Source: Formosa sp. Hel1_33_131
GTDB taxonomy: Bacteria; Bacteroidota; Bacteroidia; Flavobacteriales; Flavobacteriaceae
Assembly: GCF_001735745.1 (NCBI RefSeq)
Contig: NZ_CP017260.1
Span: 270,001-302,000 of the forward strand
DNA: 32,000 nt
Direction of reading: 5' to 3'
Program-made: the position numbers and the translations under genes
Shown: positions 6,749-25,260 of the stretch, piece after piece
Layout: each line of letters begins with the position of its first letter
How positions within the stretch are numbered: position 1 is the stretch's first letter
Notes under the pieces: generated by a model
Seen by the model: only the letters and a program-made list of their open reading frames with translations
Told to the model about the DNA's origin: nothing
Database searches by the model: none

Positions 6749-6765
6749 ATTGAACTTTAGATCGT

Positions 6766-7998
6766 TTATTTGTTTTCAAAAACCGAATCTTTATACCATT
6801 GTTCTTCTTTATAATCGTCTATTCTTGATTTATATTCTCGGTTTTTTATAATCAAATGGGTGCGATCTTTCTGTTTGCTTCGGTAGCCAAAAAGATGAAA
6901 CAACTGTTTGGTAATCAGACGTGCAATACGCAAGTTCACTACCATTGTATCTTTCAGTTCTGAAGCCCATTTAACGCCTGGAAGCATCACAAAGATTCGA
7001 TCCGTTTTGTAGGTTCTTAGAACTTCTGAAAGGAGTAAGAAAAAAGGGGATATTTTTCGTATCAGAAAATAACCATCACTCCCTTGAGATTGATAGAGTG
7101 GCATAAAAATAATGGCCTTTTTTAAAGCGTAAATGGGTTGTTCATTGAGTGTTGCCAAAACCTCTTTTCGTTTGATGGTTTGAAAATTTAAAAACCCTGG
7201 TTTCATAACGAATCGTTCCTTTTTTTTAACTTCTAATCGATAATACACCTCGTAAAAATGTTGATGTTCTGGAAAGTGGGTGTTCCAATGGTCGATATAG
7301 TGGTCAAAACCAACAGCATTTTTAGCGAGTGCCCCCGTAAATACAAGTGACAAATAGATGAAAATTTTATGATTCTCAACAGAACTTAGAGCGTCATGCT
7401 GACCCGCTTCAAACCCAAAAGAAACATATCCGAGTTCATTAATATAACTTAGAAGTGGTCCCTCAAGATACTCTTCAATACCTAAAATTAAAGGCACCGG
7501 ATATTGCTGCGTAAATTTTCTATTCAACAAGCTGTCATTGACCGTAATAAATGGAGGAGATGCACTTGAAGTTGTATGAAGGTCAAAAAAGTAGAAAGGG
7601 CCTTCCTCCTCTTTTAAAATGGTATTTAGTAATTGAAAAATTTCCAACTGTTGTTTTTCATCCTCATTCTCAGGGATGAGATCTCCATTTTCTAAGGCTT
7701 CTATTTTATCTTGTGACCAGAGACGATTCAAGTCTGTTTTGTGGTAACGCACCGCTCTTTCCAAGGCCCATAAATTACCGCTTATGGCAATCATCGTTCC
7801 AGAAAATTCGTTTTGCTTTGGTTGCAATTCCTTAAGAACTTGATGCAAGGCAAACAGCCCCGAAGGTTCATTTCCGTGAATACCTCCCAAAAAAACCAAA
7901 CAAGGCCCTGGATACTCCCCGTCTATTCGTCCCACAATTCGGTTCACGCTAATGGTTTGATTGAGTGCTTTGCTATGAACTTCAGGCATTATAAACAT
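6766..7998 (-). CDS. Succinylglutamate desuccinylase/aspartoacylase (AstE/AspA, M14-like zinc hydrolase) family protein with ~150-aa C-terminal extension
   Basis: 410 aa with zinc-site motifs GGIHGNEPSG and FFDLHTTS. The start overlaps the stop of the upstream gene: by 17 nt with ATG 7998, or as ATGCCTGA with the second ATG at 7989. Confidence 0.75.
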   Translation of the reverse strand: MFIMPEVHSKALNQTISVNRIVGRIDGEYPGPCLVFLGGIHGNEPSGLFALHQVLKELQPKQNEFSGTMIAISGNLWALERAVRYHKTDLNRLWSQDKIEALENGDLIPENEDEKQQLEIFQLLNTILKEEEGPFYFFDLHTTSSASPPFITVNDSLLNRKFTQQYPVPLILGIEEYLEGPLLSYINELGYVSFGFEAGQHDALSSVENHKIFIYLSLVFTGALAKNAVGFDHYIDHWNTHFPEHQHFYEVYYRLEVKKKERFVMKPGFLNFQTIKRKEVLATLNEQPIYALKKAIIFMPLYQSQGSDGYFLIRKISPFFLLLSEVLRTYKTDRIFVMLPGVKWASELKDTMVVNLRIARLITKQLFHLFGYRSKQKDRTHLIIKNREYKSRIDDYKEEQWYKDSVFENK

Positions 7999-9853
7999 GG
8001 ATAAGGTCTTTGAGTGTTAAAATTCCAACCAGTTGAGTTTCTTGTAATACGGGCAAACACCCTATTTTATGTTTTTTCATGAGGGCAATGGCTTTGTTTA
8101 AAGGAGTAGATGTTTGTGCAGTAAATACATCGGTAATCATAATTTCTCGTGCACTGATTGAATTGTTAGCATCCTGTACCTGATCCCAAAATTGTTTTAG
8201 ATGCTGCCATGTAATTAAGCCGACCAATGTTCCGTCATTGTTTACAACTGGTAAATGATGAATCGTATTCCACTTCATATAATTGAGTGTCAACAATCCT
8301 AAATCTGAGGTTTTAGCCGTTATAAGTGTTGAGGTCATAAGATGACCAACTTTTGTTGCTGTAGAGTTGAAAAATTTGATACTTTGTAAATTTGGCCATT
8401 CACTCACTTTGTCATAAGATTCCTGATTGGTATGTAAGGTCGAAGTAAGTGCTATTAAGGCATCATCTGGTTTTAATTGCTTTTTCAGATAACGATAATT
8501 TGTTACCATCCACTGCGACCCTGTCGATTTTAAAAGCCGATCTCTAATCACGTCTAGATATTTATCGATATCATCGTTATCAATTTTCATGCGTTCCAAT
8601 CCTATTTTGGAAATGGGCAGCAATACTTCTAATACCAGTTGATCGAGTGGAATTAATTTCCCTCTCCAGTTCATAATAGATTCAGTGCCTGTCCTTGCAG
8701 CACGAATAAAATTGGATTTCACATCTTCAAAATCCAATGTTCTAGGGATATCATCAAATTCAGTCGGTCGGCCTTTCATAAGTCCCACCCAAAACGCAAA
8801 ATTAGCCATTTCGTCTGTGGCGGTTGGACCTGATGGAATGTACCTGTTCTCGATACGAACATGAGGTTTCCCATTTCCTACTCCATAGCAAGGACGGTTC
8901 CATCTATAAATGGTTCCATTGTGCAAGTTAAGTGCTGTTAGCTTTGGGATTTTCCCAGCTTTCAATTCGTCAAAAGAACTGCTCTTAATTTCCTTTGTTA
9001 GCAAGGTTCTAAATTTAGATATTTCGTGTTTATAGAAATCTACGATGGTTCCTGTAAACCAACTGTTCCCAAAAGTGACTCTAGATTGTTGTTCCGTCTG
9101 AGCCAAGGAGACTCTTCGGGTGTCAATACTTTGTTGGAACAATGCAATGCGGGTTTCACTCCAAAGTTCTTTTCCAAGAAGTAAGGGCGAATTCACACAA
9201 GCTCCTAATACAGGCCCAGCGATTGTTTGTGCCCAATTATAGCTCGAGGCAAAATCATCAGGAGCTATTTGTAGATGCATTTGAAAACTGGTGTTGCAAG
9301 CTTCAAACATTACCGAATTGTGCATAATTGGGAGGTCGTCAACGCCCGCAAAATTCATTCGAAAATTTTCACCTTTAGCTTTTTTGAGTACCTCATTCAA
9401 AGCATAATAGCGATCGAAGGGTGTCATAAATTCAAGATCCAACTCATGTTTTGAAATGCTTGGCAAAATCCCTGTCAGTAGGATTTTAGTGTTGTTGTTA
9501 TTAGCAGCGGTTTTTGCTTTTTCCAAAAGGGACTTTAACTGATTTTCTACTTTTTTGAAAGCATCTGTTTTAAGTTCTATAGGGTCCAAATTTATTTCTA
9601 AATTAAAACGTGCTAATTCCGTAGTGAAATGCGAATCATTAATTGCTTCAAGCACTTCCAACGCATTTTTGGCAGGACGCCAATATTCATTGACCAAACA
9701 GAATTCTTGTTCGGCTCCAATACGGACAATATCGTCTTCGATCATCTTCTTCTCAAACATATATTCAAGACTTTTAAGGTCTTCCATAAGGTGGCGAAGG
9801 AACTCTATCCTCGCTTGATGATCTGATTTTGTATTTACTTTCTGCTCTCCCAT
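7982..9853 (-). CDS. Glutamate-cysteine ligase family 2 (carboxylate-amine ligase)-like protein fused to a C-terminal CBS-domain pair
   Basis: 623 aa. The N-terminal ~450 aa carry a GCS2-type GAEQEFCLVN motif and overall pattern. The last ~130 aa hold two CBS motifs (HHLPVVNNDGTLVGLIT ; KIGCLPVLQETQLVGILTLKDLI). Confidence 0.7.
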   Translation of the reverse strand: MGEQKVNTKSDHQARIEFLRHLMEDLKSLEYMFEKKMIEDDIVRIGAEQEFCLVNEYWRPAKNALEVLEAINDSHFTTELARFNLEINLDPIELKTDAFKKVENQLKSLLEKAKTAANNNNTKILLTGILPSISKHELDLEFMTPFDRYYALNEVLKKAKGENFRMNFAGVDDLPIMHNSVMFEACNTSFQMHLQIAPDDFASSYNWAQTIAGPVLGACVNSPLLLGKELWSETRIALFQQSIDTRRVSLAQTEQQSRVTFGNSWFTGTIVDFYKHEISKFRTLLTKEIKSSSFDELKAGKIPKLTALNLHNGTIYRWNRPCYGVGNGKPHVRIENRYIPSGPTATDEMANFAFWVGLMKGRPTEFDDIPRTLDFEDVKSNFIRAARTGTESIMNWRGKLIPLDQLVLEVLLPISKIGLERMKIDNDDIDKYLDVIRDRLLKSTGSQWMVTNYRYLKKQLKPDDALIALTSTLHTNQESYDKVSEWPNLQSIKFFNSTATKVGHLMTSTLITAKTSDLGLLTLNYMKWNTIHHLPVVNNDGTLVGLITWQHLKQFWDQVQDANNSISAREIMITDVFTAQTSTPLNKAIALMKKHKIGCLPVLQETQLVGILTLKDLIHVYNA

Positions 9854-9938
9854 ACAAAGAAGTTTTAAATGGTTTTATTTAGGTTCGATAGATTTTTTAA
9901 TTGCACAATCTGTATCCGTATCATAAATCAAAAGTTCT

Positions 9939-10752: not shown

Positions 10753-11943
10753 TTAAGCTAAAACAGCTTGTACTTTGTCAGCAGCTTCTTGAAATTCAAC
10801 AGCACTTTGAACATCCAGTCCGGAGTTGTCAATTAATTTTTTGGCGATATCCGCATTGGTTCCTTGTAAGCGTACAATGATTGGCACATTGATAGTTCCC
10901 ATGTTTTTATAAGCGTCAATCACTCCTTGAGCCACACGGTCACAACGCACAATTCCTCCAAAAATATTAATCAAAATGGCTTTTACTTCTGGATCTTTTA
11001 AGATAATCTGAAAAGCGGCTTCTACACGTGCAGCATCTGCCGTACCACCAACATCTAAAAAGTTAGCTGGCTCACCTCCTGCTTGTTTGATTAAATCCAT
11101 CGTCGCCATTGCCAAACCTGCACCGTTTACCATACAGCCAACGTTGCCTTCTAAATCTACATAATTAAGACCTAAAGCACCTGCTTCAACTTCAATAGGA
11201 TTTTCTTCGCGAATGTCTCTTAATTCTAAATAATCTTTATGTCTGAATAAAGCATTGTCGTCAATGGTTACTTTGGCATCGACTGCTAATATTTTATTAT
11301 CACTTGTTTTTAATACTGGGTTGATTTCAAATAACGATGCATCCGATTTGTCATAAGCCGTATATAAAGCTGTTACAAATTTAGTCATGTCCTTAAATGC
11401 AGCCCCTGATAAACCAAGGTTGAAAGCTACACGACGCGCTTGGAATGGTAACATTCCAGTTGCAGGATCAATTTCTTCTGTAAAAATTAAATGTGGTGTT
11501 TCTTCAGCAACGGTTTCGATATCCATTCCACCTTCCGTAGAATACATAATCATATTTCTTCCTGTCGTTCGGTTCAAAAGAACTGAGACATAAAATTCAC
11601 TCGTTTCCGTCTCACCAGGATAATATACATCTTCAGCTACCAATACTTGGTGTACTTTTTTGCCTTCGGCAGAGGTTTGAGGCGTCACTAATTGCATGCC
11701 GATAATTTGATCTGCAATCGATTCTACTTCACCTAGATTTTTAGCAAGTTTAACCCCACCACCTTTACCACGACCACCTGCGTGTACTTGGGCTTTTAGG
11801 ACGTGCCAGCCTGTACCAGTTTCTTCGGTCAGTTTTTTGGCAGCAGCAACCGCTTCTTGAGGCGTATTTACGACGATTCCCTTTTGGATTTTTACGCCAA
11901 AAGTGCTTAATATTTCTTTTCCTTGGTATTCGTGTAAGTTCAT
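10753..11943 (-). CDS. sucC: Succinate-CoA ligase (ADP-forming) beta subunit
   Basis: 396 aa with MNLHEYQGKEIL.. N-terminus, ATP-grasp region and C-terminal CoA-ligase domain (GGIVRCD, RLQGTN). Confidence 0.95.
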   Translation of the reverse strand: MNLHEYQGKEILSTFGVKIQKGIVVNTPQEAVAAAKKLTEETGTGWHVLKAQVHAGGRGKGGGVKLAKNLGEVESIADQIIGMQLVTPQTSAEGKKVHQVLVAEDVYYPGETETSEFYVSVLLNRTTGRNMIMYSTEGGMDIETVAEETPHLIFTEEIDPATGMLPFQARRVAFNLGLSGAAFKDMTKFVTALYTAYDKSDASLFEINPVLKTSDNKILAVDAKVTIDDNALFRHKDYLELRDIREENPIEVEAGALGLNYVDLEGNVGCMVNGAGLAMATMDLIKQAGGEPANFLDVGGTADAARVEAAFQIILKDPEVKAILINIFGGIVRCDRVAQGVIDAYKNMGTINVPIIVRLQGTNADIAKKLIDNSGLDVQSAVEFQEAADKVQAVLA

Positions 11944-14424: not shown

Positions 14425-15630
14425 CTATTCGCTGCCGTCAACATACGCCTGGAGGTATGAAAATGCCGGCGTAAGTTGTCTGTTTTTAGTCATTCGAGAC
14501 CGTTCTAAAACCCCATAGGCATCCTTATTAAAAAAGCATGGGATGATGTCTTTTACAAAAATTTCTCCAAATCCTTCACTGGCATCTTTTGGCAATTCAC
14601 AGGGTAAATTATCTACTGCCATGACGGCAATCGCATTGGTATTTCTAAAATCGACTTCCGTTTCTGTTTGCGGATCATAGCCATAAATGGGACTTTCAAT
14701 GGTAGAGGGTCGGATGGTACAGGCCACAGGCCCATCGATATCACAACTGATGTCTGCCACAACTTTTAATTTAAAGGATTCTGCTTTGGCTTGATCCCGT
14801 GTGAAAAATGCAGGAGCTCCTTTTCCGTAAAAATGACCAGCTACAAATAGATCGGCTACGGATGTAAAGCGATCAAAGGTAGAGCGGTATGCTTCTGGGT
14901 GTTTAAATAAATCGGACTTCCCTAGATGCTGCCCATCTATACGTTCGCAATAGTCCAATACATCTAAAAGTACATAGACCGCTTCTGTAAAATCTTTATT
15001 TAAGAAATCGTCAACCGACACTTTTTTAATATTTAGATGGTCTAAAATTTCTTTAGCCCCCTGCCCTACACGTCCCGTTCCAGTCAAAATAATTTTAATA
15101 TTAGGAAGTGTGATTTGATCTAATTCTGTATTTAATGCCTGACGACCACTGAGTGTTGTCGCTTTTGGTAATTCAAATATAGTTTGTTTTAATCCTAAAG
15201 TTCGCATGCCATTATAAGCGCCTACAACCCCTGCATAATAGCCAAATCCAATCAGTCGGTGCTTGTTTTTATTAATCAGAGTTTCATGGTCATAAAGGGT
15301 GATGTTTTTATCTAAAATCGCGCGCAGCAACTCTCGATTGTAAGGTTGTTTTTTGATGGTATGACTGAAAAAAAAATAGCTTTTGTTTGGGATTAAGGCA
15401 TCGATCGGGACTTCTTTAACGCCTATCAATACATCTGCCTCACTGACATCTTTAACGACCTCTAAACCTACTTTGGTGTACTCTGCATCTGAAAAAATAC
15501 GAATGGGTGAAGTTTCAACCACTAACTTTGCAGATGGAAAGTCTGAAAGTAGTTTTTGACAGGATGTTGGGTCTAAAACTACACGTCTGTCTGGGGGCGA
15601 TTTTCGTTCTTGAATGATGGCAAATTTCAT
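14425..15630 (-). CDS. Lysine-ketoglutarate reductase / saccharopine dehydrogenase-like (alanine dehydrogenase/PNT family) NAD(P) oxidoreductase
   Basis: I place the start at MKFAIIQERK (ATG at 15630), giving 401 aa. Motifs: VKEVP...YFFFSHTIKKQPYNRELL (LKR-type) and the Rossmann GTGRVGQGA. The 65-codon extension in the ORF track overlaps the ssrA promoter and gene and is rejected. Confidence 0.7.
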   Translation of the reverse strand: MKFAIIQERKSPPDRRVVLDPTSCQKLLSDFPSAKLVVETSPIRIFSDAEYTKVGLEVVKDVSEADVLIGVKEVPIDALIPNKSYFFFSHTIKKQPYNRELLRAILDKNITLYDHETLINKNKHRLIGFGYYAGVVGAYNGMRTLGLKQTIFELPKATTLSGRQALNTELDQITLPNIKIILTGTGRVGQGAKEILDHLNIKKVSVDDFLNKDFTEAVYVLLDVLDYCERIDGQHLGKSDLFKHPEAYRSTFDRFTSVADLFVAGHFYGKGAPAFFTRDQAKAESFKLKVVADISCDIDGPVACTIRPSTIESPIYGYDPQTETEVDFRNTNAIAVMAVDNLPCELPKDASEGFGEIFVKDIIPCFFNKDAYGVLERSRMTKNRQLTPAFSYLQAYVDGSE

Positions 15631-15675
15631 AGGCAGATAAAAAATATTAAAAGATTTTTCACGAAAGTAAAAGGA

Positions 15676-15709
15676 TTTGAGCGGTTGCACAAGTTTTTTT
15701 GTAACTTTG
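15676..15709 (+). promoter_or_regulatory. Candidate ssrA promoter (TTTG, 22-nt spacer, TAACTTTG)
   Basis: TTTG at 15676-15679 and TAACTTTG at 15702-15709, about 28 nt upstream of the mature tmRNA 5' end (a leader that RNase P would remove). The spacer is slightly long and this is a motif match only. Confidence 0.3.
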
Positions 15710-15737
15710 CCTCCCCTCTTTGGGGGATTATAGTAAT

Positions 15738-16129
15738 GGGGTCGACTGGTATTGACAGCGAGATCTACTAAACTGTAAGCACGTCGTGTGATGATATTGA
15801 TACACGTAAAAGGCCATATCACCATTTAAACGGCGAGAATAACTACGCTTTAGCTGCTTAATCCGAATTATAGTAGGATGAGCCTAGTCCCGCAAGGCGG
15901 GAAAGCTAAATGTCTCCTGAAAGCCTTGGTTCACGGCGTTCAATTTTGAGACATCGTAAATGTCAACCTAGATTCTCTAAGGCTTTGGTAGGGATTCGAA
16001 ATTAAAAAAGCTAAGGAATAAGTGGGCCGTTTTTAGTCAGTTTATTTCCGACAATTAAATAAAAACTAAACGTGTAGAAAGCTTTTTATTAGCTTGTTTG
16101 GACCCGAGTTCGATTCTCGGCGACTCCAC
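15738..16129 (+). ncRNA. ssrA: tmRNA (transfer-messenger RNA, SsrA)
   Basis: The 5' end GGGGTCGACTGGTATTGACAGCGAG is typical of Bacteroidota tmRNA. The tag reading frame is at 15832-15861: GGC GAG AAT AAC TAC GCT TTA GCT GCT TAA = GENNYALAA*. The 3' end is GTAGAAAGC...GGACCCGAGTTCGATTCTCGGCGACTCCAC, with T-arm CCGAG/TTCGATT/CTCGG. The acceptor strand CGACTCC pairs with the 5' GGGGTCG. CCA is not fully encoded (ACT). Confidence 0.93.
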
Positions 16130-16290
16130 TTTGAAGCACAGCAAAGCTGTGAATAAACCCTTAAAAAAGCCCTGCAAATTTATTTGTAAGGGCTTTTGTA
16201 GGTTTAGACACCTGGGCTGAAAGCACAGTTTGCTGTATTTCCTAAAAGGGAGCTAAGAGAGAAACCGAAGGTTAATCTAGGCGACTCCAC
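16124..16290. repeat. 167-bp direct repeat, copy A (starts in the last 6 nt of ssrA, ends in a second copy of the tmRNA 3' end)
   Basis: Identical to 20703-20869 at 165/167 positions with no indels (differences at 16261 g/a and 16279 a/c). Confidence 0.95.
16164..16198 (+). terminator. Likely ssrA terminator hairpin (inside repeat copy A)
   Basis: AAAAAAGCCCT-(15-nt loop)-AGGGCTTTT. The AGCCCT/AGGGCT stem (16168-16173 / 16189-16194) is extended by the A/T runs. The U-tail is short. Confidence 0.45.
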
Positions 16291-16364
16291 TTTTTATTCC
16301 CAAGAATAATTTTTTATACTTGGGAGTAATTTTTTCTAAAAACAGCTAAATCAGACCTAAAAAA

Positions 16365-16391
16365 GTTCGACTTCACTCCCCTCTGCTCCAC
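16365..16391 (+). repeat. tmRNA-3'-end-like 27-mer, variant copy 1 (GTTCGA-N15-CTCCAC)
   Basis: GTTCGACTTCACTCCCCTCTGCTCCAC. It shares GTTCGA and CTCCAC with the genuine end (16108-16129) but has a 15-nt rather than 10-nt middle. Confidence 0.7.
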
Positions 16392-16573
16392 TTTTTATTC
16401 TCAAGAATAATTTTTTATTTTTGGTAATAATTATTTGATTATTTCAAGAAAATTAGTTCTTATTAAACTTTAAATTAAATCAACAATATCAAATTGTTAT
16501 AAAAATAGCACATAATTACAAAAAAATACCACCCTTGTAGAGTGGTATTTTAATAATTTAACTAGAGTTTCTT

Positions 16574-19500
16574 TTAAAACGCCCGTACAGCACGTACAGC
16601 TTTTGAATTATTAGTTGAGTGGTTTGCTCCAGGGCTATTAGAAGAAGTTCCAAAACCATTTGCCATATTAACAAAATATGCGTTACCGTAACCAGGTTGA
16701 GTGGAACTCCAATAATCATTACCGCCCCACATTGGAGAAATATTTGCTTTAGCTAAATAAATTAATTCTAACTCTCTAATAGTGGGTAAGCGCCAATCCA
16801 TAAATTTAGCGCCGTTAGTATCGTGTCTTGTGATATCATTTAAAAGATTATCAATTGGATACCATGTAGAGACACCTTGGTCTTGCATTGCGACCACCAA
16901 ACCGTGTTTTCCACCATCACGGACTTCAATTACAAACCCACCTAACTCTGCATAGAAAGTGTTGACACTATATACAGAATCTGAACCACTTGATGGAGTC
17001 GTCCATGTAGGAACTCCTGTTCCCGAGGATGTTAATACCTGCCCCGATGAACCTGCATTATTATTTGGCATAAGTGCACCATTGAATTTAATATTGCCTG
17101 CAACATCTAACTTTTCGGTTGGTGAATTAGTTCCTATTCCAACTTTACCATCATTCTTTATTATCATTTTAGTGTCTGATAATCCATAATCATTGGCGTT
17201 AGTATAGCTATTTAGTATAAAACGTAAATCCGTTCTACCCCAATTACTAATTCCTGATGCAACAATAGCCGTTTTATTAATACCACCTGCTCTCAACATA
17301 AGGTGAGCCTCATCACCCTCACCATACGCATTAATTAATGCTTTAGCATCACCTAAAGCAGCCTTTACATGTAAAAGTTGTGCAGGACTAACTGTCCCAA
17401 TACCAACATTTGTACCATCATCATAAATTGAGCTATTTCCTAGTACTGTTGAAGACCCATCGAATTTGGCTATCATATTACCAGTTCCTGAACCGCTAAC
17501 CCCTGCCGAAGAAGTTGTCCACGATAGTGCTCCAGAACCATCCGTTGTTAAAACCTGTCCGCTTGTACCGTCAGTGTTTGGAATTGTAATCTCTCCTGCA
17601 GTTATTGATCCACTTGTTTTTACATTCGTAACACTTGTATTACCCAATTGAACTGTATTATCGCCAGAGCCAATAGCACCTTTACCTATTACAGTTTCAT
17701 TATTTGCATTAGGTGAACTCACATTTGCATCAAGTCCAATCAAAGTGTTGTTTGTACCTGTTGTTATCGATTCTCCTGCTCTTTGTCCTAAACCAGTATT
17801 ATTGCTTCCTGTAGAAACGTTAAGCATTGTTTGATTTCCTATTGATGTATTAGCAATTCCTGTAGTTAATGAAAACATATTTTCGGCACCCAAAGCTGTA
17901 TTTCCACTACCTGTTGATAATGCTCTCATATTGTAGTATCCAATTGCAGTATTGTTATCAAACCCAGTTCCTGAGTAAGATTCGAGAGCTCTCGATCCTA
18001 TTGCAGTATTTCGCTTTCCTGTTCCCGAACCCATCGAAGATCCGATGGCTAAATTGTTATCGCCATCACCAGATCCTGTGCCAAAATATAAGCCATCAAC
18101 AGTAAGACTAGTCGTTATTGTTGTGTTGTCAGGCAATCCAACGGTGGTTGTAGAATCAGATGTAGAAACTTCAATTTCATTTACTGTTCCATTAATTGTT
18201 TCTGCCGAAGAAGTTGTCCACGAAAGTGTTCCAGAACCATCTGTTGTTAAAACTTGATTGGCATTACCAGTCGTATTCGGATAGGTGTTTCCACTAGCAA
18301 TTAATGTTGGAGTGGTTACCGTTCCTGTAAAGGTTGGTGAAGCAATATTAGCTTTTAAATCTATTGCCGTATTTTGGGTGGTTTGCTCGGCGGTAATCGC
18401 AGACAAAGAACTTGTTGTAGTACCACTCACAGCACGAATAGCACGAACAGCACTTGAAGAGTGCTTAGCGTTATCATTGACCTGACCTCCATTATTGAAA
18501 TTCTGTTTCCATGCGCGATTATTAGCAACTTCCGAAGAAGTCCAGTATACGGTAGCTGAAAATGGTGTAAATCCAGAGATTGCATCTAACGTTGGTTTTT
18601 TTATATACATCTCATTTAATTCGTCTTTTGAAGGAAAAAACCAGTCGGTATAACCTCCACCATTATATGCCCTTGCTAAACCTGCAGCATAACTCGTTTC
18701 CGTTTCACCTTGGGCGTTTATAATAGCCGTTGTATTGACTGCTCCAGTTCCTATCGCGGTACCTGTTGCTCCAGTTGTGATGTGAGTGCCATTGTACCAT
18801 CGAATCCCTGTACTCTGGTCTTCTATAGCACTAACTAAACCCTTAGTGTTATCTGTTGGGTCTATCCAAAATACAAATCCGCCCCCTACAAAATCACCAA
18901 TAGATAATGGCTGAGCTACTTGACCATTATTAATAATATCTGATAGAGCAGCAATTTCACTTGTATCTGCATCTGCACCTGCTGGACCGATTTGACCTTG
19001 AGCCCCTGTTGGACCTACCTGACCTACTGGACCTGAAACTGTTGAGTCCGCACCAGCTGGACCTTGAGCACCTTGATTTCCTGTTGGGCCGATTGGACCC
19101 GCTAGGCCTTGGGCTCCTTGATTTCCTTGAGCTCCTGCTGGACCGATTGGACCTGCCTGACCTACTGGACCTTGAACACCTTGAGCTCCTGCTGGACCGA
19201 TTGGACCTTGAGCGCCATCAGCACCATCTGCACCTGCTGGGCCTGGAGCACCTTGATTTCCTTGAGCTCCTGTTGGACCTATTGGACCTGCCTGACCTAC
19301 TGGACCTACTGGACCTACTGGACCTAGAACTGTTGAATCCGCGCCAACTGGACCTTGAACACCTTGATTTCCTTGAGCTCCTGTTGGACCTATTGGACCC
19401 TGAGCACCAGGAGCTCCTGCAGCACCTATACTTCCTGTTGGACCTATTGGACCCTGAGTACCAGTCTCGCCTTGTATTCCTTGGTCGCCTTGTACACCTT

Positions 19501-19843
19501 GAGCACCATCAACTCCGTCTTGACCATCAACACCTGCTGGTCCTGGAGCACCTTGATTTCCTTGAGGACCTGCTGGACCGGCTACACCATCAATTTTTGC
19601 CCAAGCCGTTCCGTCATAAAAATAAAACCCTGATACTTCATCCGTTTGATAAATCATCAACCCTGAAGCTGGTGATACAATTGCATCTCGCTGCGTCTGT
19701 GTGAGTCTTGGAATTAAAATTCCACCTGTAGTGGATTCAATCTCTAATGCCGAAGAGGCATCAGGGTTATTTGTGTTGATACCTACTTGTGCGTAACCCA
19801 ATGCTGTGAACAGCATAAGTGCTATTAATGTGATTTTTTTCAT
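16574..19843 (-). CDS. 1089-aa secreted mosaic fibre/adhesin: N-terminal VGINT..PR.T module, collagen-like triple-helix repeats, DUF1566 (Lcl C-terminal-like) domain, tail-fibre-like and YadA-head-like repeats, second DUF1566 domain
   Basis: Signal peptide MKKITLIALMLFTALGYAQ. 66 G-X-Y triplets span aa 86-291. DUF1566-like blocks are GGFVFWID...YTDWFFPSKDELNEMY...YWTSSE...AVRAIRAV and GGFVIEV..GLVVA...FMDWRLPTIRELELIY..YWSST...AVRAVRAF. The motif SGQVLTtdGSG.lSWTT occurs 4 times, NTAIG/NTALG/NTSIG/NTGLG/NTLIG repeats are present, and VGIGT.sP...L.V motifs match tail-fibre-like proteins. Confidence 0.88.
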   Translation of the reverse strand: MKKITLIALMLFTALGYAQVGINTNNPDASSALEIESTTGGILIPRLTQTQRDAIVSPASGLMIYQTDEVSGFYFYDGTAWAKIDGVAGPAGPQGNQGAPGPAGVDGQDGVDGAQGVQGDQGIQGETGTQGPIGPTGSIGAAGAPGAQGPIGPTGAQGNQGVQGPVGADSTVLGPVGPVGPVGQAGPIGPTGAQGNQGAPGPAGADGADGAQGPIGPAGAQGVQGPVGQAGPIGPAGAQGNQGAQGLAGPIGPTGNQGAQGPAGADSTVSGPVGQVGPTGAQGQIGPAGADADTSEIAALSDIINNGQVAQPLSIGDFVGGGFVFWIDPTDNTKGLVSAIEDQSTGIRWYNGTHITTGATGTAIGTGAVNTTAIINAQGETETSYAAGLARAYNGGGYTDWFFPSKDELNEMYIKKPTLDAISGFTPFSATVYWTSSEVANNRAWKQNFNNGGQVNDNAKHSSSAVRAIRAVSGTTTSSLSAITAEQTTQNTAIDLKANIASPTFTGTVTTPTLIASGNTYPNTTGNANQVLTTDGSGTLSWTTSSAETINGTVNEIEVSTSDSTTTVGLPDNTTITTSLTVDGLYFGTGSGDGDNNLAIGSSMGSGTGKRNTAIGSRALESYSGTGFDNNTAIGYYNMRALSTGSGNTALGAENMFSLTTGIANTSIGNQTMLNVSTGSNNTGLGQRAGESITTGTNNTLIGLDANVSSPNANNETVIGKGAIGSGDNTVQLGNTSVTNVKTSGSITAGEITIPNTDGTSGQVLTTDGSGALSWTTSSAGVSGSGTGNMIAKFDGSSTVLGNSSIYDDGTNVGIGTVSPAQLLHVKAALGDAKALINAYGEGDEAHLMLRAGGINKTAIVASGISNWGRTDLRFILNSYTNANDYGLSDTKMIIKNDGKVGIGTNSPTEKLDVAGNIKFNGALMPNNNAGSSGQVLTSSGTGVPTWTTPSSGSDSVYSVNTFYAELGGFVIEVRDGGKHGLVVAMQDQGVSTWYPIDNLLNDITRHDTNGAKFMDWRLPTIRELELIYLAKANISPMWGGNDYWSSTQPGYGNAYFVNMANGFGTSSNSPGANHSTNNSKAVRAVRAF
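18971..19588 (-). repeat. Collagen-like G-X-Y coding tract (28 + 31 + 7 triplets separated by GAD-STV[L/S] breaks) with internal DNA repeats
   Basis: Strict 9-nt/3-aa periodicity. Plus-strand segments such as GCACCTTGATTTCCTTGAGCTCCTG.TGGACC.ATTGGACCTGCCTGACCTACTGGACC recur. The tract is clearly GC-richer than the flanks. Confidence 0.9.
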
Positions 19844-19844
19844 C

Positions 19845-20543
19845 TTATTGTTTTATGATTTTAAATGTTGAAATTTGGTTTTGTGTGTTTTGTAAATTCA
19901 GTAAATAAACACCTGTTGGTAAGTCTGTAACATCCAGTTCTAAGGCATTTGATTCTAATATTTTTTGACCTGCTGTATTGAACAATGTTGAGTGTTGCGC
20001 AAAATTAGAAACTATAATTATTTTATCGGTTGTTGGATTTGGGTAAACACGTACGATATCATTTAGTGTTTCTGTTTTTATGGTGAGTGTTGCTGATGAA
20101 GCACTTGCAGTAATTTTTTTAAATCCAACAAGTTCTGTGAAATCATAACTCAATATGTTGTTTGTATCATCAATGTTTGGAGCAACATTGTTCCAAACAT
20201 CGTTGGCATCCAATACTTCTAGAACTAATTCTGCTTCGTCAATACCATTGAGTTCAGAATCTAAATAACGAAAAGAAAGTATTCCTGAATAATCAGTTAG
20301 TTCATTTGATAATTCATAAACTCTTTCAATACTAGAGTTATCTCCAACAACTATTGGGGTAGTCGATCGCGCAATAGAATTAGGCCCTGTTATGGTATGA
20401 GATACACTAGGGGATAATTCTAATCCGTCTACTGAAACAGAACTATTGGAGTTAACACTAACAAAACTTCCTGATTCAATGCTGAGAGTTTGGCTAAAAC
20501 AAAAGGAAGTTGCTAGCAATAAAGCTATTAGTAATTTGTGCAT
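19845..20543 (-). CDS. Small secreted protein with T9SS type A C-terminal sorting domain, first gene of the fibre operon
   Basis: 232 aa with signal peptide MHKLLIALLLATSFCFSQ and C-terminus VRVYPNPTTDKIII...LPTGVYLLNLQN...FKIIKQ. Its stop (19845-19847) lies 1 nt from the ATG of the 1089-aa gene (19843). Confidence 0.8.
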   Translation of the reverse strand: MHKLLIALLLATSFCFSQTLSIESGSFVSVNSNSSVSVDGLELSPSVSHTITGPNSIARSTTPIVVGDNSSIERVYELSNELTDYSGILSFRYLDSELNGIDEAELVLEVLDANDVWNNVAPNIDDTNNILSYDFTELVGFKKITASASSATLTIKTETLNDIVRVYPNPTTDKIIIVSNFAQHSTLFNTAGQKILESNALELDVTDLPTGVYLLNLQNTQNQISTFKIIKQ

Positions 20544-20681
20544 GGTTAAACGTTAAATTGGTAATGCAATTTAGTTTAAAAATTATAAACATTTAATACA
20601 TATTTGATATATTATAATAAAAGTAATGATAATTATATTTTATTTGAAAGAATTGAACCTCTTTAAATCCTCAACAAAATA

Positions 20682-20708
20682 GTTCGATTTTACTCCCTTT
20701 AGCTCCAC
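20682..20708 (+). repeat. tmRNA-3'-end-like 27-mer, variant copy 2
   Basis: GTTCGATTTTACTCCCTTTAGCTCCAC, directly abutting repeat copy B. Confidence 0.7.
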
Positions 20709-20869
20709 TTTGAAGCACAGCAAAGCTGTGAATAAACCCTTAAAAAAGCCCTGCAAATTTATTTGTAAGGGCTTTTGTAGGTTTAGACACCTGGGCTGAA
20801 AGCACAGTTTGCTGTATTTCCTAAAAGGGAGCTAAGAGAAAAACCGAAGGTTAATCTCGGCGACTCCAC
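20703..20869. repeat. 167-bp direct repeat, copy B (ends in an exact 15-nt copy of the tmRNA 3' end, TCTCGGCGACTCCAC)
   Basis: 165/167 identical to 16124-16290. 20855-20869 equals 16115-16129 exactly. Confidence 0.95.
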
Positions 20870-20946
20870 AAATTATTGACTATCTTGAACTTTCAAAAAG
20901 ATATGTAATAACCCATTTATTAATTTAAAATTAAGACTTTTAAGTA

Positions 20947-21225
20947 ATGAAATATCCAAATTTATTTAAAGCATTTAATACGCATATAGATTTAGACATT
21001 GATGCATATCTAGATTTAGAAGACCGTTTAGTCCACAAAAAAATAGGTAAAAAAGATTTTTTATTTAAACAAGGGGAAGTGGTTAATTACTTACCATTTA
21101 TTAACGATGGACTAATGATAAATAATATAATAGATAAGGATGGAGAAGAACATGTAATCCAAATTCGGGGGACTGGATTATGGCTTGGTGATTTGTACAG
21201 CTTTTTTTCAGGTGCAACAACATGA
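20947..21225 (+). pseudogene. Crp/Fnr-family regulator fragment: N-terminal cNMP-binding half only
   Basis: 92 codons. KKDFLFKQGEVVNYLPFINDGLMINNIIDKDGEEHVIQIRGTGLWLGDLYSFFSG matches the cNMP-binding beta-roll. The HTH half is missing. The frame ends where an opposing gene fragment begins (~21215-21225). Confidence 0.6.
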
Positions 21226-21380
21226 GAAATGTCAAAAACTGTTAAATCATTATTGATGGCTTCTTCCGTAAAGTTTTTAACAAAAGGAGTTCCTGGAATA
21301 TTAGAAAATTGGGCATGGAGGGGGTTGCTAACAATGAAAATTGCTAGAAAAACGAGACTTCTGATTGTATTTTTAATCAT
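21222..21380 (-). pseudogene. 5' fragment (~53 codons) of a secreted protein gene, truncated against the Crp-like fragment
   Basis: MIKNTIRSLVFLAIFIVSNPLHAQ (signal peptide) is followed by FSNIPGTPFVKNFTEEAINNDLTVFDISH. The rest of the 97-codon ORF (21087-21221) is only the antisense of the Crp-like fragment. Confidence 0.45.
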
Positions 21381-21558
21381 TAATGATAAATAAGTAACTT
21401 TTAAAACGAAACCAAATATACAATTTATGACGAAACCGTATTATTCAACATGATAATTTATTCATAGTTAAGAGGTAAACCTGAGCGCACATAATATAAA
21501 ATTACATTTGACAAGAAATTAAAATAAATTGATTAATTTTGCAACTTACTTTTGTAAA

Positions 21559-21888
21559 ATGTATTTAAACAATCAACTTGCAAAAAATATTGCTGCGTTA
21601 TTGCTTTTATTAGCTTTAATACTTCCGACTGCAATTCAGTTTAGCCATATGATTGAAGGGCATGAAGGTGATACTTGTAATAACCTGAGTACTCACATAC
21701 ATAAATCTGAAAAGAATTGCGAAATATGTGCTTTCCATATTACATCTTTCAACTATGATATTGCTAAATATCCTGATTTACTTTTAGCACAAATTTCTGT
21801 TAAGGTCAGTACAACCTATACCCCATTACAATTATACTTCTCTACCTTAACAAATAATCAGTTACGCGGCCCCCCAGTATTTTCTTAA
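21559..21888 (+). CDS. Small membrane-anchored His/Cys-rich protein, first gene of the TonB-receptor operon
   Basis: I prefer ATG 21559 (109 aa) over the TTG at 21529. It has one N-terminal TM helix (IAALLLLLALILPTAI), then HMIEGHEGDTC..THIH...CEICAFH and a C-terminal RGPP. It lies 39 nt upstream of the receptor gene. Confidence 0.55.
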   Translation: MYLNNQLAKNIAALLLLLALILPTAIQFSHMIEGHEGDTCNNLSTHIHKSEKNCEICAFHITSFNYDIAKYPDLLLAQISVKVSTTYTPLQLYFSTLTNNQLRGPPVFS

Positions 21889-21927
21889 TATACGAACAAA
21901 CACGTTTAATATTAATTAAGAATTTAT

Positions 21928-24327
21928 ATGCGCAACTATGCATTATTGGTACTGCTATTTAGCAGTATTACATCGTTGTCACAAAATTGTGACAATTCAC
22001 TTTCAGGTATAGTAACAGATATTCACGATGGCCAATTGCTCATCGGAGTCACCCTTATTATTGCAGACACTGAACAAACTGTTCAGACGGGTTTAGATGG
22101 AGAGTTTTCTTTTTCAAACCTTTGTAATAACACCTATTTCATACAGGTTTCACACCCCTATTGTTTGACAAAAGGATTTACTGTTAGAATTTCTGGGAAT
22201 ACCAAAAAGTCATTTAAGTTAGAGCATCATATTGAAGAACTCAATCAAATTACGATTGAAGGGAAAGCCTACAGTGACAAATCCAAAACACTTCTCGAGA
22301 ATACTATTAACAAAGAAGAGTTGGAGCGTTTTAATAGTGGCTCTCTTGGTGATGCTCTAAATAGTTTGAGTGGTGTATCGTCACTAAATACAGGGAGCAC
22401 GGTCGTAAAACCAATGATTAATGGACTTCACAGCAGTCGTGTGGTCATCGTTAATAATGGGGTGCGGATGGAAGACCAAGAATGGGGGGCAGAACACGCA
22501 CCTAATATTGACATAAATTCCGTCAGTAACCTTACCGTCATAAAAGGAGCTGGTGCACTTCAATACAGTGGAGATGCTGTAGGGGGCGTAATTATTGCTG
22601 AAGCTTCTAAAGTTCCGGTAAAAGACAGTTTGTATGGCAAAACTTTGATGACTGCAACTAGTAATGGGCGTGGCGCCTCGTTGAGCTCAAAATTGACTAA
22701 AAGTTATCAAAATGGATGGTATGCAACCCTGCAAGGATCCTTAAAACGCTTTGGAGATTTTGAAGCTCCTGGCTATGTATTGAGCAATACAGGGATTTTT
22801 GAGAGAAGTGCTTCTTTACAAGTAGGTTTTAACCGTTTTGACTATGGTATTGAGGGGTATTATTCAATCTTTAAAAATGAGATTGGAATTTTAGCGGCCT
22901 CACATTTGGGCGGTGCTCAAGATCAAATTAGAGCCATCGACAGCGATGTACCACTAATTATAAACGATTTCACATATACGATCAATGCACCTAGGCAAGA
23001 TGTCACCCATCATTTGGCAACTATAAAAGGATTTAAACGGTTTGAAAACTTTGGAAAACTTAGCATCCAATACGATTTTCAAAGAAACAATCGGCTTGAG
23101 TTTGACATCAGGCGTGGGGATGACAAAAAGAAGGCTGCATCAGATTTACAATTAGATACGCATACCGTTTTGCTAGATCTAGATGCACCTTTGTCTGATA
23201 AAATTGTATTAAAAACAGGGCTCATGGCGAAGTATCAAAAAAACGTTGCAAATCCCGAAACGGGTGTGAGACGGTTGATCCCTGATTTTCAGATGTATGA
23301 CTTAGGAATGTACTTTGTAATGGACTACCAATTAAATGACCAATGGCTTCTGGAAGCCGGGGGCCGTTTTGATTACTCCTTTATGGATGTTTTTAAATTT
23401 TACAGAACCTCCTTTTGGGAATTACGTAATTATGACCAGCTATTTCCTGAAATTGTGCTTGAAGAATTGGAGAATCAAATTTTAACCAATCCGCAACTAA
23501 ATTTTAATAACGGTTCAGCTACCTTAGGAGCCAACTATACATTTGGTGAGGATTATAAATTGTTTTTCAACTATTCCATGGCATCTCGAGCGCCAAATTC
23601 CTCAGAACTTTTTAGTGAAGGCTTGCACCATTCTGCTTCTCGAATCGAACTGGGAGATTTAAGCTTCAATTCTGAAATAGCACATAAAGTTGCATTGACA
23701 TTTCAAAAGGAGAACGATCTATTTAGTTTTAATGTAAACCCTTATATTAATACCATTTCTGACTTTATAGTGAATGAACCTACAGAAATTCAGCAGACGT
23801 TGAGAGGCAACTTTCAGGTGTGGGAATACCGCCAAACGGATGCTCAATTGTTAGGTGTAGATGTGGATGCCTCCTATGCTTTTGCTAAAAACGTTCGTTT
23901 AAACAGTCAATTCTCTTTAGTCAAAGGCTATGACCAAACTTTAGACGCGCCACTAATCGGAATGCCGCCTGTAAACATTAGCAACGAAATTGTATATCAA
24001 AATCCTGAATTCAATAACATTCGTCTGTCTTTACAAAGCGCATATCATTTTAAACAAAATGACTATCCCAATACCAATTTTGAAGTGTTCATACCAGAAA
24101 CCGAAACATATAAATTGGTGGATGTAAGCTCTACACCAGACGCGTATCATTTGCTTAATTTTAATTCGAGTATCGATATTAATCTCAACCAAAAATCAAA
24201 ATTAACGGTAGGACTTAGAATTACAAACGTATTGAACACTTCGTATCGAAACTACCTGAACCGTTTGCGCTATTATGCAGATGATTTGGGCAGAAACTTT
24301 TTATTTAATCTTAAAATCAATTATTAA
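21928..24327 (+). CDS. TonB-dependent outer-membrane receptor with N-terminal carboxypeptidase-regulatory-like domain
   Basis: 799 aa with a signal peptide, the CarbopepD_reg-like LSGIVTDIHDGQLLIGVTLII...GEFSFSNL, a plug (VVKPMINGLHSSRVVIVNNGVRMEDQEWGAEHAP) and a long beta-barrel ending in an aromatic residue (..FNLKINY). Confidence 0.9.
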   Translation: MRNYALLVLLFSSITSLSQNCDNSLSGIVTDIHDGQLLIGVTLIIADTEQTVQTGLDGEFSFSNLCNNTYFIQVSHPYCLTKGFTVRISGNTKKSFKLEHHIEELNQITIEGKAYSDKSKTLLENTINKEELERFNSGSLGDALNSLSGVSSLNTGSTVVKPMINGLHSSRVVIVNNGVRMEDQEWGAEHAPNIDINSVSNLTVIKGAGALQYSGDAVGGVIIAEASKVPVKDSLYGKTLMTATSNGRGASLSSKLTKSYQNGWYATLQGSLKRFGDFEAPGYVLSNTGIFERSASLQVGFNRFDYGIEGYYSIFKNEIGILAASHLGGAQDQIRAIDSDVPLIINDFTYTINAPRQDVTHHLATIKGFKRFENFGKLSIQYDFQRNNRLEFDIRRGDDKKKAASDLQLDTHTVLLDLDAPLSDKIVLKTGLMAKYQKNVANPETGVRRLIPDFQMYDLGMYFVMDYQLNDQWLLEAGGRFDYSFMDVFKFYRTSFWELRNYDQLFPEIVLEELENQILTNPQLNFNNGSATLGANYTFGEDYKLFFNYSMASRAPNSSELFSEGLHHSASRIELGDLSFNSEIAHKVALTFQKENDLFSFNVNPYINTISDFIVNEPTEIQQTLRGNFQVWEYRQTDAQLLGVDVDASYAFAKNVRLNSQFSLVKGYDQTLDAPLIGMPPVNISNEIVYQNPEFNNIRLSLQSAYHFKQNDYPNTNFEVFIPETETYKLVDVSSTPDAYHLLNFNSSIDINLNQKSKLTVGLRITNVLNTSYRNYLNRLRYYADDLGRNFLFNLKINY

Positions 24328-24362
24328 TTTAACTATTAAAAAACAACAAAAACAACAAAAAC

Positions 24363-24911
24363 ATGAAAAACATGAAATTTTTAACTACAGCATTATTTAC
24401 AAGCATATTATTTATCGGATGTTCAAAAGACGACGCCCCACAACCTGTAAACGAAGAAGAAGTGATCACCACACTAACCGTAACTCTTGTGCCAAATGAC
24501 GGCAGTACAGCGATCACCTTACAGACTCGTGACTTGGATGGTGATGGACCTAACGAACCCGTTATTACAACTGGTAATTTAGCTACCGGCGTCACCTATA
24601 GTGGTAGCATAGTTCTACTTAACGAAACTGAAAATCCAGCTGAAAACATCACGGATGAAGTTGAAGAAGAAAGTGTAGAACACCAATTTTTCTATACACC
24701 AACAGCTGGTTTGGATGTTACAACTAACGCTGAAAACCTTGATTCAGAAGGCAATAAACTAGGAACCGAGTTTACCTTGGTCGCTGGAGCCGTGAGTTCT
24801 GGAACGTTAACCTTTACGTTGCGTCATGAACCTACTAAGCCAAATACAGGTCTTAACGATGCGGATGGAGAAACAGATATTTCTGCAACGTTTGATGTAT
24901 CAGTACAATAA
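24363..24911 (+). CDS. Lipoprotein of unknown function, partner of the TonB-dependent receptor
   Basis: 182 aa with lipobox LFIGC-SKDD. The mature part is acidic with a repeated beta-rich pattern (EEVITTLTVTL ; GTLTFTLRHEP). It lies 35 nt downstream of the receptor gene. Confidence 0.7.
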   Translation: MKNMKFLTTALFTSILFIGCSKDDAPQPVNEEEVITTLTVTLVPNDGSTAITLQTRDLDGDGPNEPVITTGNLATGVTYSGSIVLLNETENPAENITDEVEEESVEHQFFYTPTAGLDVTTNAENLDSEGNKLGTEFTLVAGAVSSGTLTFTLRHEPTKPNTGLNDADGETDISATFDVSVQ

Positions 24912-25016
24912 ATTTGAATTAGTCACAATTCAATTAATTTGGTTCGAAAAAAAACTTATGGTTATTAAAAAATGAGATTAAATATACCCGTAAGTTAACT
25001 TTACGCAGGCCAAATT

Positions 25017-25055
25017 AAAACCCACAACTCTAAAAGTTGTGGGTTTATTGTTTTT
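25017..25055 (+). terminator. Rho-independent terminator after the receptor operon
   Basis: AAAA-CCCACAAC-TCTAAAA-GTTGTGGG-TTTATTGTTTTT (stem 25021-25028 / 25036-25043). Confidence 0.65.
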
Positions 25056-25074
25056 ATAAATCCTTTCCAAAACA

Positions 25075-25101
25075 GTTCGACTTTAGGCCCTTTGCCTCCA
25101 C
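25075..25101 (+). repeat. tmRNA-3'-end-like 27-mer, variant copy 3
   Basis: GTTCGACTTTAGGCCCTTTGCCTCCAC, preceded by AAAACA as in the other variant copies. Confidence 0.7.
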
Positions 25102-25260
25102 GATTAAGCGCAGTGCGACTGCGAATTAAAATTCAAAAAACTTACCAAGCTTGCTTGTGTAAGTTTTTTTGTTTTAAGGACAAAGCTCTTTTAGACCTTA
25201 TTGGACTCGTTTGTAACGAGTGCAAAATCAACCCTAAAAATTGGTTTCATCTATTGTAAG
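25096..25260. repeat. Diverged third copy of the 167-bp repeat family (hairpin, terminator-like hairpin, hairpin)
   Basis: Same order of elements after CTCCAC as in copies A and B: the small hairpin CGCAGT-GCG-ACTGCG (25109-25123), then A6-CTTAC..GTAAG-T7 (25135-25170), TTTAGAC, the hairpin ACTCGTT-TGT-AACGAGT (25205-25221) and CCTAAAA. Alignment done by eye. Confidence 0.45.

Follow-up and report, generated by a model that had tools for sequence, protein, structure and literature searches.

We have analyzed a window of 32,000 nucleotides from Formosa sp. Hel1_33_131 (contig NZ_CP017260.1, positions 270,001 to 302,000), meaning by the window this whole stretch of DNA, in which the transfer-messenger RNA (tmRNA) gene ssrA is followed by an array of DNA units. 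ssrA is an intact RNA gene at the array boundary. ARAGORN and Rfam RF00023 (131 bits against a gathering score of 47) both place it on the + strand, from 15738 to 16129 or 16131; it is full length, with Rfam model positions 1-374 covered, and encodes the tag peptide GENNYALAA. The gene closes with CTCCAC (16124-16129), the first copy of a core shared by the whole array, and beyond the gene the same hexamer ends five sites, at 16290, 16391, 20708, 20869 and 25101. All six unit boundaries are CTCCAC, and the sequence 5' of the hexamer varies, being that of ssrA, of a unit that we call U161, or of a 45-nt motif; because the units differ upstream of CTCCAC, the hexamer is the sole identity between left and right junctions.

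The original prediction for this DNA was that ssrA, ending at 16129, is followed by five extra copies of its own 3' end. The five CTCCAC-ended sites are real, and two of them are true copies: the ssrA-end 15-mer TCTCGGCGACTCCAC, found at 16115 in the gene, recurs as predicted at 16276 (one mismatch, 14/15) and at 20855 (15/15), against a chance expectation of 0.01 in shuffled controls. The remaining three, GTTCGA-N15-CTCCAC at 16365, 20682 and 25075 (chance expectation in shuffled controls 0.00), had been taken for longer variants of the ssrA end. Of the ssrA 3' end they have just GTTCGA and CTCCAC, separated by a spacer that is 5 nt longer. Because nothing but these two blocks matches ssrA, the N15 sites are mimics and not copies; they belong instead to a conserved 45-nt element-end motif of many Flavobacteriaceae that is also found behind tRNA-Ala(GGC). 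A position-weight scan of both strands of the 32 kb found no further copies of the motif.

The first unit, U161a (16130-16290, + strand), is 161 bp long and consists of a small trailer hairpin, a terminator-like hairpin, a pseudo T-arm (CCGAAGGTTAATCTAGG; CCGAAGGTTAATCTCGG) and the 14/15 copy of the ssrA 3' end; it occurs once in every strain examined. Next comes X101 (16291-16391, + strand), a 101-bp 'empty cassette' with a left-end hairpin, TTATTCCCAAGAATAA/TATACTTGGGAGTAA, a spacer, and copy v1 of the 45-nt motif (16347-16391) with its terminal CTCCAC. The 45-nt block of X101 reads TAAATC...AAAAAAGTTCGA...CTCCAC, and the E1 cassette and the last unit of the array finish in the same kind of block. 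E1 (16392-20708, + strand) retains remains of a left-end hairpin, carries two genes on the - strand, and ends in motif v2 (20664-20708) and CTCCAC; by Pfam its cargo is a collagen-repeat/Lcl_C fibre protein (16574-19843, - strand) and a 232-residue protein with a type IX secretion (T9SS) sorting tail (19845-20543, - strand). Both X101 and E1 have CTCCAC at either end and the 45-nt arm at the far end, and neither carries a recombinase. A second 161-bp copy, U161b (20709-20869, + strand), follows, with its terminal 15/15 match to ssrA, so that X101, E1 and U161b make up a polymorphic block of 4579 bp (16291-20869). The two U161 copies lie in a direct repeat of 167-175 bp (16124-16298 and 20703-20877) with 97% identity.

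The original prediction had further proposed modules at roughly 16291-20869 and 20870-25101. The former is the 4579-bp block, which is absent from some strains; the latter is two remnants joined by a deletion at 21222/21223. The left remnant, E2L (20870-21222, + strand), has a left end, AAATTATTGAC, that starts directly 3' of CTCCAC, and it holds the first 92 codons of a cyclic nucleotide (cNMP)-binding, Crp-like regulator (Pfam), cut at the deletion joint. E2L is 91% identical to L016 9924-10280, where the L016 sequence continues beyond the position of the window's joint, whereas the neighbouring AlaDh gene is only 65% identical between L016 and the window. A search for the full-length Crp-like gene of an intact E2L gave fragments only. 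The right remnant (21223-25101, + strand) is the tail of a module of ~23 kb that is intact in other strains. It comprises the 5' fragment of a 959-residue gene (21223-21380, - strand), a small open reading frame (ORF; 21529-21888), a TonB-dependent receptor (21928-24327, Pfam), a 182-residue protein (24363-24911), an operon terminator (25018-25046) and, at its end, motif v3 (25057-25101, + strand) with terminal CTCCAC. Beyond it lies an 80-bp trailer unit (25102-25175, + strand), a hairpin with a T-rich terminator, of which a second copy, different by two single-nucleotide polymorphisms, is found directly after U161 in strains with the intact ~23-kb module. We also considered 20870-25101 as a clean insertion; contigs L014/L015 and L159-L164, with two trailers flanking the ~23-kb module, and the joint at 21222/21223 rule this out.

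How does the array vary among close relatives? Marine metagenome contigs obtained by exact-protein look-ups, 98-99.9% identical to the window flanks, give three haplotypes. In haplotype T0 (L002-L008 and L010), ssrA is followed by U161, the 80-bp trailer, a degenerate motif and the ~23-kb module, which carries MFS, GH30, GH16, cellulase, PKD, SusD and SusC genes and the 959-residue gene, then the TonB receptor operon, and which ends in motif v3-CTCCAC, the second 80-bp trailer and a Kelch-repeat gene. Haplotype T1 (L001) has the T0 layout with X101, E1 and U161 (4579 bp) inserted behind the first U161. In haplotype W, that of the window and L165, the E1 block is present, the CTCCAC of U161b is followed by AAATTATTGAC and the truncated Crp-like gene, the 959-residue gene continues with its 5' fragment from the joint at 21222/21223, and the polysaccharide-utilisation locus (PUL) is lost. 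The 4579-bp block, present in L001, L011, L013 and L165, is missing precisely from L002-L008 and L010, which are thus the empty sites sought in relatives. Other junctions are equally placed at the core: the left junction of E2L lies exactly 3' of the U161 CTCCAC in the window, the point at which other strains have the 80-bp trailer, and L160/L161 part from L159 exactly at the degenerate core beside the PUL (about 21710-21764). The stretch behind ssrA is a strain-variable stacked hotspot. The idea of a stacked integration hotspot at this site is borne out by strain polymorphism at 98-99.9% flank identity and by units that all end in the ssrA terminal hexamer.

Several further observations concern the array and its surroundings. 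In place of the degenerate motif and 80-bp trailer of L159, L160/L161 run on into an McrBC restriction gene. The L009 contig stops no more than one base from the 3' end of ssrA, and assemblies tend to break at the array, with a large share of the motif matches (among L017-L136) lying no more than a few hundred bases from a chunk or contig end. The E1 fibre protein has 1089 residues, ~20 collagen triplet repeats, two Lcl_C domains and, in precomputed annotation, a PTL_trimer domain; it and its T9SS-tailed partner are gained or lost as one pair among co-occurring strains. On the other side of ssrA, the listed 466-residue AlaDh_PNT ORF (14425-15825, - strand) runs 88 nt into the RNA gene, and because some contigs call a product of 401-404 residues, its true start probably lies downstream of the listed one. 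A second strain-variable spot, at window positions 6753-9900, holds an AstE/AspA-like gene of 410 residues and a CBS-domain gene of 623 residues, on the - strand; at its counterpart all related contigs have a DUF1016/YhcG gene of 337 residues, sometimes fragmented.

The 45-nt motif reaches far beyond Formosa. A scan with the pattern AGTTCGAYTTYANNCCNNNNNNCTCCAC, using one genome per species, found at least 120 loci. Among the matches listed, about 112 are in Bacteroidota, mostly Flavobacteriaceae, with hosts that include Polaribacter, Formosa, Lutibacter, Flavobacterium, many metagenome-assembled genomes (MAGs) and a few Chitinophaga, Marinoscillum and Bacteroidales; the remaining matches listed, in other phyla, are chance hits. 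The consensus is AAATC-N6-AAAAT-AGTTCGAYTTYACTCC-N6-CTCCAC, and conservation extends outside the search pattern, to AAATC at -16 to -12 and AAAA at -5 to -2. Compared with true tRNA-Ala and tmRNA ends (GTTCGA-N10-CTCCAC), the motif has a fixed 5-nt insertion. We also asked if its N6 block is the acceptor strand of the host gene, and rejected this because of mismatches to the co-resident ssrA or tRNA-Ala in L016, L017, L027 and L081. The motif is associated with RNA genes: among the matches listed, a tmRNA gene is found in 9 of the ~112 chunks where 0.3 is expected (P about 3e-11), in 8 cases with the motif downstream and co-oriented, and tRNA-Ala(GGC), whose 3' end is also ...CTCCAC, is found in 3 chunks and is co-oriented in 3/3. 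No other tRNA is enriched in the motif chunks among these matches, and where a tRNA-type gene is visible the motif sits downstream of ssrA or tRNA-Ala(GGC). The literature that we searched holds no description of this flavobacterial motif.

L027 is a single clean cassette that reads tRNA-Ala-CTCCAC, hairpin, one gene of 367 residues, motif-CTCCAC and terminator. X101-like empty units lie directly behind tRNA-Ala in L081 and L020 and directly behind ssrA in L016, L017 and L072. Module size, taken as the distance between successive cores, ranges from 81 bp to 5.6 kb and is often that of one gene. A hairpin nearly always lies 3' of CTCCAC (mean folding energy -12 to -13 kcal/mol vs -5 to -6 in shuffles), and the dominant hairpin family has compensatory changes in 5/11 pairs. 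Clustering of 637 ORFs indicates a diverse cargo, mostly of secreted or surface proteins. Some cargo, such as E2L and the right part of E1 (84-89% identity in L053 and L095), is common to different species in different contexts.

U161 represents a second kind of end. U161-like units found elsewhere end in a block matching their own target gene. In L074 and L096 this is a tRNA-Ala(GGC)-type 3' end, the L074 unit end AATCCCTTCTTCTCCAC being identical to the last 17 nt of the tRNA-Ala(GGC) of L020/L081; in L118 and in the window it is the terminal ssrA 15-mer. Both end types come after GGTTAAT, with a T-loop 2 nt short. U161a and U161b (14/15, 15/15) are co-oriented, displaced copies of the ssrA 3' end, and since U161 units behave in this way as classical displaced fragments, an older family whose crossover lay closer to the T-loop probably had a part in them.

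What enzyme might move such units? As had been predicted, no integrase, excisionase or transposase ORF is found in the 32 kb. Pfam detects no such domain, and no resolvase or serine-recombinase domain, in 18 large and two short ORFs of the window; the scan left out a 667-residue ORF (1763-3766) and a 396-residue ORF (10753-11943), whose counterparts in relatives are annotated as UvrB and succinyl-CoA-ligase-like. A hidden Markov model (HMM) built from diverse tyrosine recombinases was run on all six-frame window ORFs of at least 60 residues, on the relatives, and on 797 kb of motif-bearing DNA from ~112 loci; the serine-recombinase search covered the window only. The tyrosine-recombinase model found nothing in the window and one enzyme in the 797 kb, in L017, a Lutibacter MAG. 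There the first module reads ssrA-CTCCAC, terminator, a 390-residue Xer/IntI-like enzyme (PF13495 and PF00589), a DinB-family gene and motif-CTCCAC. The L017 enzyme falls just under the NCBIfam cut-offs of the XerA/'integron integrase' models (200 bits vs 265 for TIGR02249; 212.6 vs 220 for NF040815). Homologues of it are abundant in Flavobacteriaceae, and we considered this family as the dedicated enzyme of the array; the contexts of homologues at 49-81% identity (L138-L141, L149-L158), with neither ssrA nor the motif, led us to reject it. Nor is there a recurrent recombinase among the cargo: clustering of the 637 ORFs yields no recurrent phage, conjugation or recombinase family, and the HMM finds only the L017 enzyme. 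One of the homologue contexts, L150 (9182-17182; GCA_014646675.1, BMNS01000001.1), has an Xer/IntI-like recombinase (P0010) followed by at least eight small same-strand ORFs, with spacers that are ~130-bp repeats with RYYYAAC...GTTRRRY cores (GCCTAAC...GTTAGGC, GCCCAAC...GTTGGGC). By its sequence L150, from a Flavobacteriaceae genome, resembles a chromosomal integron whose integrase and cassettes point the same way.

We lean toward the proposal that the window contains an array of cassettes that recombine at CTCCAC and are moved by a tyrosine recombinase supplied in trans. Six bp is the size of the overlap region of tyrosine recombinases, and the conserved arm lies only 5' of CTCCAC, where it resembles the T-loop and acceptor end of the target gene; the 6-bp shared core and the one-sided arm together lead us to propose site-specific recombination between like sites. 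The data show where the units end, how strains differ, how well the motif is conserved and which genes it accompanies, and how rarely an integrase is found; from these we infer a circular intermediate, the class of the enzyme and its action in trans. CTCCAC, the last bases of a tRNA-Ala-like acceptor end, would be the crossover hexamer. Most cassettes (X101, E1 and the tail of the PUL module) carry at the far end a 45-nt arm, the putative recognition site, which mimics the T-loop-to-3'-end segment of tRNA-Ala or tmRNA plus five bases; U161 units have there a copy of the 3' end of the host gene itself, and a cassette usually starts with a hairpin terminator. The partner of a circular cassette would be the CTCCAC that closes ssrA, tRNA-Ala(GGC) or a pseudo-end left by an earlier event. 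Such an insertion would keep the RNA gene intact, supply a new terminator and displace older cassettes outward. The recombinase would not be cassette-borne; most likely a tyrosine recombinase comes from another place in the genome or from a rare autonomous relative, for which the L017 recombinase module, with its same ends, is a candidate, its homologues being unlinked to ssrA or the motif. DNA between any two cores could leave as a circle, one predicted junction being v2 motif-CTCCAC-TTTTTATTC or -TTTGAAGC, and excision between two cores would explain the trailer-like left ends and the duplicated trailers on blocks. Homologous recombination between repeated units (U161 and the 80-bp copies) and ordinary deletion would then reshuffle the array; both processes clearly also act here.

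Several points weigh against this proposal. We have seen no circular form or excision junction. The assignment of the enzyme rests on one locus, L017, and on the general rule that islands targeting tRNA-type genes use tyrosine integrases (PMC4383910), because the L017-enzyme homologues examined in this respect (58-81% identical) do not lie beside ssrA or the motif. Most of the ~112 motif loci are 8-kb pieces without a tRNA-type gene in view, so that an exclusive link of the motif to ssrA and tRNA-Ala is unproven. In L028 the motif copy (296-323) is opposite in strand to the tmRNA gene (979-1377) and lies 650 nt beyond the ssrA 3' end, the only such case; an inversion might account for it, as might a convergent array that ends there. 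Finally, direct repeats of 80-175 bp lie on both sides of the E1 block and likewise of the ~23-kb module, and because of these repeats their gains and losses are equally possible by homologous recombination. Carried further, this last point becomes an explanation of its own, in which the units are immobile, the array varies by homologous recombination or gene conversion between repeats (U161, the 80-bp trailer, X101) after uptake of DNA from related strains, together with illegitimate deletions, and the motif is a passive relic. It would accommodate the E1 block between its repeats of 167-175 bp and 97% identity, the ~23-kb module between two 80-bp copies two polymorphisms apart, and the joint at 21222/21223 as an ordinary deletion. 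One would think however that a relic would not stay near-invariant over 45 nt across genera while its flanks diverged fully. The boundaries at CTCCAC are moreover sharp even between unrelated neighbours, and the first placement behind a tRNA-type gene would still require a site-specific step, so we regard immobile units as unlikely.

Did each module instead decay from a classical island or prophage that was self-sufficient and encoded an ssrA-specific integrase of its own? U161, with a host-specific 15/15 ssrA end behind a pseudo T-arm, is what a displaced fragment should look like, as are the units of L074 and L096 with their tRNA-Ala(GGC)-type ends; the L017 integrase sits in a module with the same ends as the others; and tandem remnants of this kind have been described for the ssrA islands of Dehalococcoides and for Prochlorococcus islands (PMC3146451; 10.1101/2020.12.28.424599). 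Yet a single tyrosine recombinase in 797 kb from ~112 loci, together with the lack of a recurrent phage, conjugation or recombinase family in the 637 ORFs, makes decay, one of the two options originally offered, unlikely as a general explanation, and many units are only 81-202 bp long or hold one gene only. Nor does the motif behave as a phage or plasmid attachment site: IMG/VR (2.9 million viral contigs) has no match, and INPHARED (50,697 phage records) and PLSDB (72,556 plasmids) gave only AT-rich chance matches, none of them genuine. We judge general decay to be quite improbable. Least credible, and very improbable in our view, is that the motif lies at module ends by chance and has a function in RNA or regulation, for instance as part of a 3' untranslated region (UTR), as a processing signal, as a small RNA or as a mini-ORF. 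Its very strong conservation and the terminator that almost always comes next might suggest such a function, and its variable positions 7, 10 and -17 are third codon positions of a minus-strand frame, VExxGVKSN[YF]FGEDL. The minus-strand ORFs (VExxGVKSNYFGEDL) stop after 15-22 codons however, and neighbouring non-third positions vary too, so a coding role was rejected; a known RNA was rejected likewise, with Rfam giving nothing even when E values as high as 10 were allowed. The upstream gene is co-oriented in just 49/76 cases, and for this reason the motif is not a 3' UTR element. A chance position at module ends also fits poorly with a motif that lies exactly at the boundaries of strain polymorphism.

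Trans-acting recombination at CTCCAC, our preferred reading, has partial parallels in described systems. The Dehalococcoides ssrA islands are tandem islands downstream of a single-copy ssrA, and the boundary of each is ssrA itself or a short repeat of its 3' end; they drive strain-level diversity, and some units without an integration module are regarded as cis-mobilizable (McMurdie et al. 2011; PMC3146451). The flavobacterial array is similar in its tandem, strain-variable units behind ssrA and in having units without an integration module. In Dehalococcoides, however, the repeat is a true 20-bp ssrA copy and a CcrB-type serine recombinase module is found in 16 islands (PMC3146451), whereas here the end is a 45-nt pseudo-end with only CTCCAC and GTTCGA as in ssrA, tRNA-Ala(GGC) is also a target, and the Pfam-scanned window ORFs include no DsiB/CcrB-type serine recombinase module. 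Islands in tRNA-type genes catalogued by Islander (Hudson, Lau and Williams 2015; Williams 2002) lie between a tRNA or tmRNA gene that is intact and, on the far side, a 3' fragment in the same orientation; tmRNA is the most enriched target, each island has an integrase, and arrays of at least three are rare, 4/3919 (PMC4383910). The intact ssrA at the boundary, the displaced co-oriented ends of U161a and U161b, the sporadic presence with a precise empty site, and the tandem array all recall such islands. At least five units without an integrase, most of whose end fragments are a diverged mimic and not a copy, do not. In Prochlorococcus, tycheposons and their remnants form islands beside a few tRNA-type genes, including tRNA-Ala(ggc) and tmRNA, where successive integrations displace older elements outward and partial tRNAs are scattered within; tycheposons carry their own tyrosine recombinase, and the fragments are real partial tRNAs (Hackl et al.; 10.1101/2020.12.28.424599). 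The marine host, the two targets and the outward displacement are alike, a likeness drawn by description only; the flavobacterial cassettes differ in having one dedicated 45-nt end and almost never a recombinase of their own.

In format, the array comes close to integrons. Integron arrays and clusters of attC sites without an integrase (CALINs) consist of small, often single-gene, recombinase-less cassettes, each with a conserved terminal recombination site. The flavobacterial arrays share the short or empty units, and the one recombinase found among their cassettes, that of L017, is Xer/IntI-like. Unlike attC, however, the motif lacks RYYYAAC...GTTRRRY inverted cores and an internal dyad, and true attC-like sites, such as those of L150, look different; the boundary is at CTCCAC, 21 nt past GTTCGA, and not at G|TT; and the anchor is the end of a tRNA-type gene and not attI beside intI. 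No IntI above the family cut-off lies beside the array, there being none in the window and the L017 enzyme being below the cut-offs. Nor does the motif have an obvious dyad around a 6-8-bp spacer, of the kind to be looked for in the 28-bp dif-like XerC/XerD sites of Xer-dependent integrative elements (IMEX). A last comparison is with the cis-mobilizable elements (CIMEs) of the ICESt1/ICESt3 family, which are flanked by att sites, lack recombination genes, accrete in tandem at one site, and are mobilised by the integrase of a related element. E1 and X101 are likewise flanked by att-type sites and without recombination genes. CIMEs, however, are deletion derivatives of a known integrative and conjugative element at the fda gene in streptococci, whereas the flavobacterial cassettes have no known parent element and their site is the end of a tRNA-type gene. 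Our best reading is that the flavobacterial array is a variant of the known integrase-less islands that target tRNA-type genes, set apart by its 45-nt mimic end and its two targets.

Among degraders of algal polysaccharides, marine Flavobacteriaceae come first, and most of the differences between their strains concern accessory surface proteins and PULs. One array behind ssrA holds a PUL of ~23 kb, a collagen-like surface fibre and a TonB-dependent receptor operon, each variably present among co-occurring strains. It is tempting, though quite speculative, to think that Flavobacteriaceae and some other Bacteroidota may possess an integron-like platform for gene capture on tRNA-Ala-type acceptor ends, in which a single trans-acting chromosomal recombinase would insert, excise and reshuffle cassettes at the 45-nt site, the 101-bp empty cassette would serve as a landing pad, and whole PULs would travel as cassettes. 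The main importance of the finding lies in a widespread motif, two target genes, and PUL-scale cargo tied to a recombinase-less cassette format. If the motif is the handle of a common recombination system, it would provide a concrete, searchable mechanism for strain micro-diversity, and it would also be a marker for variable cargo in metagenomes and a candidate tool for site-specific integration in Bacteroidota.

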